A DNA stretch of 64,000 nucleotides from Escherichia coli. Lineage in GTDB: Bacteria > Pseudomonadota > Gammaproteobacteria > Enterobacterales > Enterobacteriaceae. Position 1 is the stretch's first letter, and every line of letters begins with the position of its first letter. This document shows positions 16,898 through 20,772 of the stretch, piece by piece. The notes below the pieces were generated by a model. The model worked only from the letters and a program-made list of their open reading frames with translations, made no database searches and was not told where the DNA came from. The stretch is taken from the NCBI RefSeq assembly GCF_003334335.1, contig NZ_QOWQ01000020.1. One strand, given 5' to 3'. A program made the position numbers and the translations under genes.

Positions 16898-19444
16898 TCA
16901 CGAAAAATATTGCTGTAATAGCGGCGTATCGTGATCCTGATTGGCAGGCGGCATGTTACCGATAGATTTTGTGCGGAACGGAATCACCTGTTCACGACCA
17001 TCAACCTTCACAATCTGATAGAACTGCGGCAGGTTGAAGTTGATGAAGCTTGAGCCGTAGGTAAAACGGTCATGCGATGACGAGTAGAAGCGACTGACGT
17101 CACGTACCAGCTCCTCTTTGCTGCCTTCGCAGTGGTGATATACCTCAACCCGGTTGCTTTCGTCGAGAATGTAGATATTAAAGCCATTCTCGTCTTGCGT
17201 TTCTTCGAAAAAGAACTGGATGATCCCTTCGCTGGCAAAGCCGTCCACCACCGCCGGTAATTTGACGTGATTGGTTTCAACCTGCACTGACAGGCCGTGC
17301 AGTTTGTTATGCGAAATCGCGCCATAAAACTCGATGGCGTTTTCCAGTTTCTGTACCGATACATTCAGGCGTTCGAAGAACAACCCCCAGGTTTGACCAG
17401 AAACGCGCAGCGCCTTGAAACGCCCGGTTTCCTGGCGGGTGCTGGAAAGACGCAATTCAATACACTCAGAAACCAGTTGCTGCACGCGAGTACGAATTAA
17501 GCCGCGCAGATGCTGGCTATAACAGAAGACTTCCACGCTATCTGGCGGTGCGGCGTCCTGATGCATTTTGCCGAGAATAGTTTTCAGGGCTTCGATCATC
17601 GATTGCTCGCCGTTGAAGTGCAGCGTACGCACTTCGTTCCACGAGTTGCGGTACAGCAGGTCAACGCTACCTACCAGGCAATTTTGATTCTCGCCAAAGC
17701 TGAAGACATCCAGCTTACGGAAATCGAAATGCACCACCTGATTGCGGAACGCCGCTGTCGGGTCATATTCCAGGTTAACGATAATCGCCAGATGGCGGAT
17801 CTCACACGGGCTGTAGAGCGCCTTCGGTGTCGGTGCAGGTAAGCGCAGCGGGAAATGGTGCGACACGTCGGCGACCATCTCCTGTAACTTAGGCAAATCG
17901 ACAATGCCGTTACCTTTAATATACAAACGGGTGCGCGAGGTCAGCAGGCCGTTAAACCATGCCCACGCCACCAGTTTATTCAGGTAACGGTTATATTCCA
18001 GCGGCTGATGGCTGATGATCGACTCAATATTTGGCGCGCGGTTATACAGATACCAACCTGAACGGTTAGCCCGGCCCGGCGGCACATAAATAAAGGTCAG
18101 ATTCGGTTCCGAGAGATCGGGTGAAATCTGCGGGTTTACCAGCGTCACTTTACCTGGTAATGCTTCAAACGCGGCATACAGCTTACGCGTCAGCACGCCG
18201 ATATCCTGCGGACTGGCGGAGACGCTAAGGTTATTGCGACGCGCAAAGCGGATCAGATTACGGTAGCTCTGCATCATCGCGTCGAGCAACTCGTTGTGCG
18301 CCTCACGCACCTGATCAATCTTCCAGTTAGCGCGGTTATCGAGCATTGCCAGACGAGCTTCGTCCCAACCCCACTCGCTCACTAACTGGCTCAACACTGC
18401 GCGACGCCAGCCTACGCAGGCGCGTTCACGGCTGAGCTTTTCGCACACTTTTAAATAGAAGCAGCGACGTACTAAATCCAGACGGGTAAAATCTTCAATC
18501 GCCGTCAGGTATTCAGTAACACGCTCCAGCATCATGCAGTATGGATCGAGACCAAACGATACAATCTCGCCGTCGTGCAAACGCTGTTTGATATCTTTCG
18601 CCAGCAGACGTGGGTTCGGGTATTCCCAGGAATAGGCTTCCAGCAGCAGTGTTTTCAGTACCGCTTTGTATGGGGAATCGATACTCTTGTAGAGCTGCCA
18701 AAGGCTGGCACCAAAGTACTCTTCAGCAGAAAGCGAGCTTAAGCCACCGAGATCCAGCCATTCATTTGGCGTCAGCACGCCCTGCGCGTAAAGCGTCATC
18801 ACATAGTCGTCGTAATGCTCTTCTTCGTCGCACGGCACCATATTCCACAGAATACGCTTACCGGCGAGACGCACGGCGGTACGATAAAATTCGTCAAGCA
18901 GCAGTATATGCTGGGTGGAGCCACAATCTTCGCCCCCCAGGCTGCCGCTTTCATTATGACGGAAGCGGTTTTCATCAATCAGGAAGAAGCTGACTTCCAC
19001 ACCCAGCGAGGCGGCCCAGTTTTCCAGCAGGCTACATTTACGTTGTAGCAATTGGCGCTCTTCGCTATCGAGCCAGGATTGATGACAGACCCAGATATCC
19101 AGGTCAGAGGAACAACTTTGCCCTACGGACGAGGTGCTGCCCATGGTGTATACACCAGTAATTGGAAGCTCACCTTTCGGCGGATCCTGTACTGACATTC
19201 CACGATACAGTTCAAGCTCGTTCAGGTAGTGGCGTTGAGTTTCATCAGGCGTGTAAAGGCAAATGCCTTTGGGAACGTTACCATCAAGGTAACCCGGCAT
19301 TAGCGGATGGTGATAGTGCAACAATGTCGGCAGTAGACTGTAGACCTGTTGGAATGCAGGCCCCATAGCAGCAAGCGCGCGATCCACACGCAATTGATTT
19401 ATGGCATCCAGTCTCTGTTTCAGAGTCTCAATATAGAGGTACAA
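16898..19444 (-). CDS. cyaA: class I adenylate cyclase
   Basis: 848-aa ORF (M)[17 protein letters not shown]; start codon is TTG (revcomp of caa at 19442-19444). Confidence 0.97.
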
Positions 19445-19830
19445 GACGTATCGCCTGATTTGCTACCCGTCATGACTGTGATTCCGCCAACATCAACGGT
19501 AACACGCGGCATTCGGGATATTTCGTATGTCAAAGGTAACCGTTACCACTTTTCGCGCCTGGTTTTTTTAGTTTCACGACGAAAAAATGGTCTAAAACGT
19601 GATCAATTTAACACCTTGCTGATTGACCGTAAAGAAAGATGCGCTACATACAAGTGTAGCACCGTTTATTCTCTGTAAATTCCTTATTACAACGGCGTGA
19701 AACGCCTGTCAGGATCCACTGCCAGACCTCATTTTACGGTTTGCGCAGGCGTCTACGTTTCACCACAACACTGACATCACTCTGGCAAGGATGTTAGGAT
19801 GGACCACGGATGATAATGACGGTAACAAGC

Positions 19831-20772
19831 ATGTTAGACAATGTTTTAAGAATTGCCACACGCCAAAGCCCACTTGCACTCTGGCAGGCACACTATGTCA
19901 AAGACAAGTTGATGGCGAGCCATCCGGGCCTGGTCGTTGAACTGGTACCGATGGTGACGCGCGGCGATGTGATTCTTGATACGCCGCTGGCGAAAGTAGG
20001 CGGAAAAGGCTTATTTGTAAAAGAGCTGGAAGTCGCGCTCCTCGAAAATCGCGCCGATATCGCCGTACACTCAATGAAAGATGTGCCGGTTGAATTCCCG
20101 CAAGGTCTGGGACTGGTCACTATTTGTGAGCGTGAAGATCCTCGCGATGCCTTTGTGTCCAATAACTATGACAGTCTGGATGCGTTACCGGCAGGCAGTA
20201 TCGTCGGGACGTCCAGTTTACGTCGCCAGTGCCAACTGGCTGAACGCCGTCCGGATCTGATTATCCGCTCCCTGCGCGGCAACGTCGGCACTCGCCTGAG
20301 CAAACTGGATAACGGCGAATACGATGCCATCATTCTTGCCGTAGCCGGACTAAAACGTTTAGGTCTGGAGTCACGTATTCGCGCCGCGTTGCCACCCGAG
20401 ATTTCTCTTCCGGCGGTAGGACAAGGTGCGGTGGGTATTGAATGCCGCCTTGATGATTCACGCACTCGCGAGCTGCTTGCCGCGCTGAATCACCACGAAA
20501 CTGCACTGCGCGTTACCGCAGAACGCGCCATGAATACCCGTCTCGAAGGCGGATGTCAGGTGCCAATTGGTAGCTACGCCGAGCTTATTGATGGCGAAAT
20601 CTGGCTGCGTGCGCTGGTCGGCGCGCCGGACGGTTCGCAGATTATTCGCGGTGAACGCCGCGGTGCGCCGCAAGATGCCGAACAAATGGGGATTTCGCTG
20701 GCAGAAGAGCTACTGAATAACGGCGCGCGCGAGATCCTCGCTGAAGTCTATAACGGAGACGCCCCGGCATGA
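19831..20772 (+). CDS. hemC: hydroxymethylbilane synthase (porphobilinogen deaminase)
   Basis: Track ORF from 19810; start set at ATG 19831 ([20 protein letters not shown]). Confidence 0.94.

Follow-up and report, generated by a model that had tools for sequence, protein, structure and literature searches.

The control region between the divergent genes cyaA and hemC was analysed in a 64,000-nucleotide stretch of Escherichia coli DNA (contig NZ_QOWQ01000020.1), referred to at its full length as the window. Comparative folding shows a predicted stem-loop, here termed SL1, that is conserved and constrained in structure and that would open the major cyaA transcript or begin very close to its 5' end. 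An earlier note, made from the letters of the same DNA, had proposed two perfect palindromes in this region as candidate regulator sites or RNA structures of the cyaA leader. Neither role is borne out by their frequency, conservation, consensus matches or folding, and one of the two, palindrome 1, is a lineage-specific coincidence beside the real conserved structure. As a whole, the region is best explained, with confidence somewhat above even, as a known control region with incidental palindromes in which SL1 is a conserved 5'-proximal structural element. No description of a cyaA leader structure was found in the searchable literature, with the cya papers of the 1980s and 1990s outside reach, and SL1 appears to be previously undescribed.

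The region itself is the already known and well-studied divergent cyaA/hemC control region of E. coli. Indeed, the 651 bases surrounding the finding are present in 5426 of 5426 complete E. coli genomes, many of them at 100% identity, where they are annotated as cyaA (class I adenylate cyclase) and hemC, and the layout matches that of K-12 MG1655 (hemC 3989825-3990766, cyaA 3991153-3993699). Window positions were converted as MG1655 = 3991153 + (19444 - window position), and this conversion reproduces two published 3'-end sequences to the base. With the hemC ATG at 19831, as in the K-12 annotation, and the cyaA start at 19444, the intergenic region is 19445-19830, which confirms the divergent spacer of 386 bp given in the earlier note. 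The position of the transcription start site (TSS) rests on a cloning oligonucleotide. In particular, Adams et al. 2021 (eLife, PMC7815308) cloned what they call the 'entire 5' UTR' (untranslated region) of cyaA with a forward oligonucleotide starting GTTTTAGACC / GTTTTAGACCATTTTTTCGTCG, which therefore places +1 at the G at 19598 (MG1655 3990999) and gives a leader of 154 nt. The supplement text of Cappable-seq and SMRT-Cappable-seq contained no cyaA entries. The features of the promoter are as follows.

19598..19633, minus strand: cyaA promoter P2, with -35 TTTACG (19633-19628), TG (19613-19612), -10 TAAATT (19610-19605) and TSS G (19598).
19598..19613, unstranded: CRP-like site TGTTA-AATTGA-TCACG over the P2 -10 and the TSS (consensus scan, conservation).

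The hexamers of P2, assigned by reading the sequence, are separated by 17 bp and have the TG-n-TAAATT form, and the block 19690-19575 is almost invariant among 78 Enterobacteriaceae sequences. The CRP-like site has two mismatches to TGTGA-N6-TCACA and is invariant across genera. Its position over -10 and +1 fits the known repression of cyaA by the complex of cyclic AMP (cAMP) with CRP, that is, the negative control described by Aiba 1985 and the cAMP-CRP-repressed cya P2 of Aiba 1985 and Mori and Aiba 1985, as cited in bioRxiv 10.1101/2024.06.10.598332. The likeness to the known system lies in a CRP-like site over the -10 and the TSS. The two palindromes differ from that site, as they stand 50-65 nt downstream and ~85-108 bp upstream of it.

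The transcript starting at P2 would open with SL1, whose parts in E. coli are listed here.

19542..19598, minus strand: SL1 stem-loop of the cyaA P2 mRNA, about +1 to +57 (folding, z-scores, covariation).
19591-19578 with 19559-19545, minus strand: SL1 core, +8 to +21 with +40 to +54.
19591-19578 side, minus strand: SL1 5' arm UUUUUUCG.
+8 to +10 with +52 to +54 (19547-19545), minus strand: lower core, ACC with GGU.
Upper stem, minus strand: AUUUUUUCGUCG with CGCGAAAAGU, closing an 18-nt loop.
3' side 19544-19542, minus strand: weak basal pairs G+1:C+57, U+2:A+56 and U+3:A+55.

With this pairing, the sequence GGUAAC is the 3' strand of the base of the hairpin. When each leader was folded separately, the same long imperfect 5'-end hairpin was obtained in 57 distinct leaders of Enterobacteriaceae, and a hairpin of the SL1 type was the minimum free energy (MFE) structure in 64 of 64 distinct leaders once Serratia-like sequences were included. 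These leaders contain 56 distinct complementary arm pairs, such as UUUUUUCGUC/GGCGAAAAA and UUUGUC.GUC/GACGACGAA, and in distant relatives the arms are unrelated in sequence and still pair, as in AUAAGUUGCC/GGCGCUUAU (Serratia), ACCGGC/GCCGGU and UGUCAGC/GCUGACA. Compared with dinucleotide shuffles, the z-scores were negative in all 57 leaders (mean -2.45), with 39 below -2, and the pairing probability of the core in E. coli is 0.6-0.99. Pairing begins at +1 in 22 of the 64 leaders and at +8 in 29.

Per-sequence folding followed by covariance-model realignment was used in place of a plain alignment. In the fitted alignment, 84.8% of the SL1 cells pair as compared with 37-60% for slid partners, and in 8 of the 17 pairs both partners change (22 cells). 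The covariation score was reached by none of 500 column shuffles. The distant Enterobacterales, which the SL1 model detects weakly (E 0.002-0.1), were analysed by folding and left out of the covariation count. G.U cells outnumber A.C cells by 74 to 27, and this excess favours a sense-strand cyaA RNA over a palindrome at the DNA level or an antisense transcript. The loop sequence varies between leaders, which makes an aptamer unlikely. In parallel, an Rfam scan of 19000-20200 (E<=10) returned nothing relevant, with a Tetrahymena snoRNA model (E=8.5) as the sole match. The fold of the whole E. coli leader (186 nt) has a z-score of -0.61 and is not significant as a whole. Downstream of SL1, about 60 nt of the mid-leader (19460-19524, minus strand) are poorly conserved and absent in many genera, with leader lengths ranging from 95 to 166 nt. 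This part also holds a second CRP-like match (19477-19492), which is unconserved, and an unconserved upstream open reading frame (ORF) of 17 codons (ATG 19473) that overlaps the cyaA start out of frame.

The palindromes were found with the letters and at the positions given in the earlier note, namely GGTAAC (19535-19540)-C-GTTACC (19542-19547) and GGCGT (19694-19698)-GAA-ACGCC (19702-19706). The note had placed both in the cyaA leader, and this holds for palindrome 1 and fails for palindrome 2.

19535..19547, unstranded: palindrome 1, GGTAAC-C-GTTACC, at +52 to +64 of the P2 mRNA.
19547-19542 and 19540-19535: its arms, GGUAAC being the 3' strand of the SL1 base and GUUACC an Escherichia-specific variant of the U-rich tract.
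19694..19706, unstranded: palindrome 2, GGCGT-GAA-ACGCC, an incidental inverted repeat in a variable spacer (conservation, strain variation, chance frequency).

In this region, inverted repeats of such a size are about as frequent as expected by chance. Indeed, repeats with 6-bp arms and a spacer of 0-10 number 2 in the 386 nt as compared with 1.15 +/- 1.3 in dinucleotide shuffles (P=0.32), and those with 5-bp arms and a loop of 3-8 number 5 as compared with 2.5 +/- 1.9 (P=0.15), the background of the whole 64-kb window being 1.9 and 3.5 per 386 nt, respectively. Sequences matching GGCGTNNNACGCC with at most one mismatch occur 3 times in the window against 3.1 expected. Moreover, the region contains a third repeat of equal quality, GCTACA-N6-TGTAGC (19643-19660), that was absent from the earlier note. 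This repeat lies at -45 to -62 of P2 within a feature (19641-19662, both strands) that a scan describes as terminator-like on both strands (-11.1 kcal/mol, z=-3.2). On the minus strand, its 8-bp stem is GUGCUACA/UGUAGCGC, and the T-rich ATCTTTCTTT behind this stem runs into the -35. The repeat is kept in most Enterobacteriaceae, with the variant CTACCA/TGGTAG in Cedecea, and could be a transcription-factor site or a terminator insulating P2 from upstream or antisense transcription.

The perfect 13-mer of palindrome 1 is found in 10 of 96 loci, all of them from E. coli or E. albertii, while relatives carry GGTAACGGTTATTTTT or GGTGACGGTTTTTGTT at this site; by genus, the sequence is GGTAACGGTTATTTTTGAC in Citrobacter and Salmonella, GGTGACGGTTTTTGTTGAA in Klebsiella and Raoultella, and GGAAACGGGTTTTTTCG in Cedecea. 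The alignment thus describes a conserved left arm and a right arm that reads as an Escherichia-specific TT-to-CC change in the U-rich tract. The palindrome is accounted for by its left arm, which is the 3' strand of SL1, and by the two T-to-C changes that happened to make the neighbouring bases complementary to this arm. As an RNA hairpin it is very weak (-3.0 kcal/mol, z=+0.65), and over the 57 leaders its pairs are mostly G.U pairs with the U-run, with partners slid by three columns pairing as well. When four E. coli leader contexts were folded with a partition function, a probability of 0.00 was obtained for its pairs, since the GGU is engaged in the much stronger conserved stem. The palindrome 1 hairpin was also considered as an alternative conformer to SL1 and was rejected at the same probability of 0.00, with -3.0 as compared with about -13.5 kcal/mol.

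Given +1 at 19598, palindrome 2 is at -96 to -108, outside the P2 leader and upstream of the major promoter, and it is also 65-77 bp upstream of the -35-like hexamer of hemC. It falls within the sole intergenic stretch (~19690-19770) that is unconserved between genera, where column identity is 0-0.6 and mostly 0-0.4. Five of its 13 positions (19697, 19698, 19699, 19702 and 19704) vary among 7 E. coli genomes sampled down the identity ranking, and the common variant GGCTCAAAGCGCC breaks the stem with no compensating change. By contrast, 6 of the same 7 genomes are invariant over the cyaA promoter and leader (19445-19690), where only the 92%-identity isolate differs. The best reading of palindrome 2 is that of an inverted repeat that arose by chance in a spacer that evolves rapidly and is untranscribed from P2. 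The earlier note had named a location outside any transcript and a lack of conservation in relatives as what would speak against its proposal, and both are found in palindrome 2 with respect to the P2 transcript, while palindrome 1 shows half of this picture. As to strain variation, the E. coli-labelled genome NZ_OZ282453.1 has an intergenic identity of 92%, a 13-bp deletion aligned to window 19716-19728 and many substitutions, restricted to the spacer between both promoters; it also has the sole change seen at the central base of palindrome 1 (19541 C>T). This genome is possibly a cryptic-clade Escherichia.

One or both palindromes might serve as operators through which a dimeric DNA-binding protein regulates cyaA, hemC or both, as both are perfect short inverted repeats inside a regulatory intergenic region, and the 13-mer GGTAACNGTTACC occurs in this exact form just once in the window (this word being expected 0.03 times in 64 kb), with arms that are invariant among the sampled E. 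coli and E. albertii. This invariance carries no signal because the entire E. coli leader is equally invariant, and as a class such repeats are at chance frequency. Palindrome 2 is unconserved even within E. coli, the right arm of palindrome 1 is unconserved outside Escherichia, and 6-bp arms with a 1-bp spacer at +52 to +64 would be an unusual operator position. The comparison with CRP and DnaA consensus sequences that the earlier note had asked for gave no match in either palindrome. Indeed, CRP matches with at most two mismatches in the intergenic region are limited to 19598-19613 and 19477-19492, neither of which overlaps a palindrome, and no DnaA box (TTWTNCACA, at most one mismatch) was found in 19445-19830 or anywhere between 18849 and 20014. 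An operator role for the palindromes is therefore regarded as very unlikely.

Several observations weigh against the explanation favoured here. The z-score of SL1 in E. coli is only -1.82, and its basal pairs have a probability of 0.1-0.3 in this species, where the MFE structure leaves a single-stranded 5' tail of 7 nt that, as modelled, is longer than expected for classical 5'-end protection. RNAalifold, applied to a plain MAFFT alignment of the 57 leaders, gave no consensus structure, because a single bulged base shifts the register between genera, and the covariation count is biased upward since the alignment was fitted to the structure. In addition, part of the conservation of SL1 is at the DNA level because its first nucleotides overlap the CRP site. 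As regards the palindromes, an Escherichia-specific DNA-binding role for GGTAACCGTTACC is disfavoured, and a weak transcript from a minor upstream promoter (P1) might conceivably pass through palindrome 2. The 1980s papers are said to have described one or more such minor upstream cya promoters.

With regard to function, SL1 is probably a 5'-proximal element that sets the lifetime of the mRNA by hindering 5'-end-dependent decay, and we infer that it is neither a ligand sensor nor a protein operator. It resembles the 5'-terminal stabilising stem-loops of the ompA 5' UTR type, which were reportedly described by Emory, Bouvet and Belasco in 1992, in that it would start at or near +1 and has a conserved structure without a conserved sequence and a variable loop. 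It differs from the ompA hairpin in being longer and more A/U-rich and in the 7 unpaired 5' nucleotides of the predicted E. coli MFE structure. The main rival to this stability role is that SL1 and the U-rich tract behind it form a leader attenuator or a pause site that stops or slows P2 transcripts and that was weakened in Escherichia by the change from UUAUUUUU to UUACCUUU. Most leaders outside Escherichia do have 5-7 consecutive U beginning within 2-3 nt of the end of a hairpin, as in GG-UUAUUUUUGA (Citrobacter, Salmonella), GGG-UUUUUU (Cedecea) and GGG-UUUUUUU (Serratia), and genera with short leaders (~95-100 nt) keep the U-tract though the rest of the mid-leader is absent. Unlike efficient intrinsic terminators, however, SL1 has an A/U-rich base, a loop of 18-22 nt and 2-3 G before the U-run, which in E. 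coli is interrupted (GUUACCUUUGAC). An intrinsic-terminator scan of the E. coli intergenic region did not flag SL1 and returned only the upstream repeat at 19641-19662. In the Term-seq table of Adams et al. 2021, the ends 3990701(-), 3991231(+) and 3991346(+) are listed and nothing falls in 3990999-3991152, so that published Term-seq places no 3' end in the E. coli 5' UTR, and a fusion carrying only the 5' UTR was Rho-independent. An attenuator or pause site is thus considered unlikely.

A somewhat less likely possibility is that SL1, the U-rich tract or both serve as a docking platform that tunes cyaA translation through Hfq and a small RNA (sRNA), ribosomal protein S1 or another RNA-binding protein. 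Hfq-binding modules consist of a stem-loop next to a U-rich stretch, which the leader resembles, and the initiation region is under strong constraint at the nucleotide level. Moreover, sRNA control of cyaA exists in a related family, where the cyaA gene of Vibrio cholerae is repressed by the Qrr sRNAs (Huber et al. 2022, as cited in PMC10335731). The two systems are alike in the post-transcriptional control of cyaA mRNA, but they belong to different families, enterobacteria do not have Qrr sRNAs, and no homologous leader was shown there. The accessible literature contained no enterobacterial sRNA-cyaA interaction, the U-tract is degraded in E. coli, and the stem and loop of SL1 vary freely in sequence, so that a factor recognising a particular sequence would have to find it outside the stem. 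Less probable again is that SL1 only seems to exist, as a side effect of constraints on the DNA (among them A/T tracts, the CRP half-site and the initially transcribed sequence), and has no function as RNA. The first 8-10 transcribed nucleotides are indeed invariant and overlap the CRP site, runs of T and A pair promiscuously, and RNAalifold returned no structure on the unfitted alignment. What speaks against it are the lineages with wholly different but complementary stems, with their 56 arm pairs and two-sided changes at 8 pairs, the strong excess of G.U over A.C and the z-scores that are negative in 57 of 57 leaders. Tentatively, and with clearly less than even confidence, SL1 and the U-rich tract may together be an undescribed cis-acting RNA element, conserved across Enterobacterales, that provides post-transcriptional control of adenylate cyclase output via stability, pausing or attenuation, or docking. 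Escherichia would have partly remodelled this element, as the interruption of its U-tract gave rise to the palindrome and ~60 nt were inserted in the mid-leader.

The leader with SL1 ends in a translation initiation region that is itself under constraint.

16898..19444, minus strand: cyaA coding sequence, class I adenylate cyclase, 848 aa (ORF list, translation, annotation in E. coli including K-12).
19442..19444, minus strand: cyaA start codon TTG (UUG), the first start after an in-frame TAG and kept in relatives.
19425..19458, minus strand: translation initiation region with a weak Shine-Dalgarno (SD) sequence and a predicted UUG-containing hairpin (near-invariance, folding).

The reading of TTG as the cyaA start, made in the earlier note, agrees with the ORF, the upstream stop and the conserved N-terminus. 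Indeed, the first possible start is TTG (19444-19442), and an in-frame TAG (19465-19463) lies 7 codons upstream with no start between, which makes an upstream start impossible. TTG is found in 77 of 77 Enterobacteriaceae loci with readable upstream sequence, with LYLYIETLK aligned from codon 1 in all 77, and in 8 more distant Enterobacterales including Serratia; in 2 of these 8 the gene caller took an upstream GTG, yet the TTG-LYLY/LYFY junction is present. The description of TTG as a weak initiator also stands and was already known, since replacing UUG by GUG or AUG in cyaA gave expression of 1:2:6 (UUG:GUG:AUG; Reddy et al. 1985, as cited in PMC5499595), and the same source describes the UUG as conserved in many gammaproteobacteria. 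Both the UUG start and the CRP-controlled P2 promoter are long established. As gene and codon are the same as in the known E. coli system, with no difference, the UUG in the window is a rediscovery; what is added is the conservation count (77/77 and the distant relatives) and the invariant synonymous sites of codons 1-6. The UUG initiation codon of E. coli cyaA is said to go back to Reddy, Peterkofsky and McKenney in 1985 and to Aiba et al. in 1984.

In the 78 Enterobacteriaceae sequences, positions 19458-19425 are invariant or nearly so. The SD sequence consists only of AGG (19456-19454), 9 nt before the UUG, and a predicted 6-bp hairpin, GUCUUG (19447-19442) with UUGAGAC (19431-19425), holds the start codon; it is present in the MFE structure, with -3.5 kcal/mol and a pairing probability of about 0.36. 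The hairpin is predicted in Serratia-like leaders too, where a synonymous AUU to AUC change turns a G.U into a G-C pair. The synonymous positions of codons 1-6 (TTG TAC CTC TAT ATT GAG, 19425-19444) are fixed in the 78 sequences, while the third positions of codons 7-8 vary freely, and the fixed sites therefore indicate selection on the sequence or structure of the mRNA around the start, beyond the protein. The UUG, the weak SD and the hairpin fit a deliberately inefficient initiation. A long-range pairing of GUUUUAG at the 5' end with CUGAAAC in codons 8-10, present in the MFE structure without covariation, was rejected because species with GUUUUAA keep CUGAAAC.

Further along the same transcript, Adams et al. 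2021 (PMC7815308) reported Rho-dependent 3' ends at +78 and +193 of the cyaA ORF, corresponding to window positions 19366 and 19251. In their work, termination needs the ORF, a fusion with the 5' UTR only shows no Rho effect, and poor translation is proposed in general terms to lead to such termination. That study, which is also the source of the TSS used here, does not describe a leader structure. At cyaA, weak initiation at UUG might thus give Rho access to the transcript. The published Rho-associated ends (MG1655 3991346 and 3991231, mapping to 19251 and 19366 on the minus strand within cyaA) were also inspected for nearby structure. The end at 19251 is 4 nt past a perfect hairpin, AAAGGCA-UU-UGCCUUU, just upstream of which is a further inverted repeat, GGUUACC...GGUAAC (19277-19293). 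This suggests that hairpins may guard cyaA 3' ends after termination or processing.

In the explanation favoured here, the output of cyaA would be held low at several levels. The cAMP-CRP operator over the P2 -10 and start site would provide negative feedback, and the P2 start would be followed by a 154-nt leader leading to an initiation region with a weak SD, a UUG and a small UUG-containing hairpin. Poor translation would then expose the early ORF to Rho-dependent termination, while SL1 near the 5' end may shield the mRNA from 5'-end-dependent decay. Since carbon catabolite control has cAMP as its master signal, the means by which cells limit their adenylate cyclase are of general interest. 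To this, the analysis makes a modest addition, namely a leader stem-loop across Enterobacterales that is conserved in structure, adjoins the CRP operator and is a candidate for tuning cyaA at the post-transcriptional level, perhaps in connection with the premature termination by Rho that is known from this gene. In practical terms, showing the palindromes to be incidental spares the effort of their mutagenesis.

Upstream of P2, the spacer holds a TyrR-box-like palindrome, TGTAAA-N6-aTTACA, with one mismatch (19674-19691, TGTAAATTCCTTATTACA on the plus strand), in which conservation between genera is limited to the half GAATTTACA (minus strand, 19682-19674); it might function as a -35 element or bind a protein, and we know of no link of cyaA or hemC to TyrR. 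The hemC side carries a further promoter-like feature.

19771..19830, plus strand: hemC promoter-like CTGACA-18-TAGGAT (TG-extended, 19771-19800) with a short leader to the ATG at 19831 (consensus scan, conservation).

The block 19770-19860 around this site is highly conserved across genera. Within a highly conserved block that includes the hemC start codon and leader, which it overlaps, there is also a promoter-like CTAACA-16-TATCAT (19837-19810, minus strand) directed at cyaA. Transcripts from this site would begin about 205 bp upstream of P2, and it might be a minor cya promoter of the old literature.

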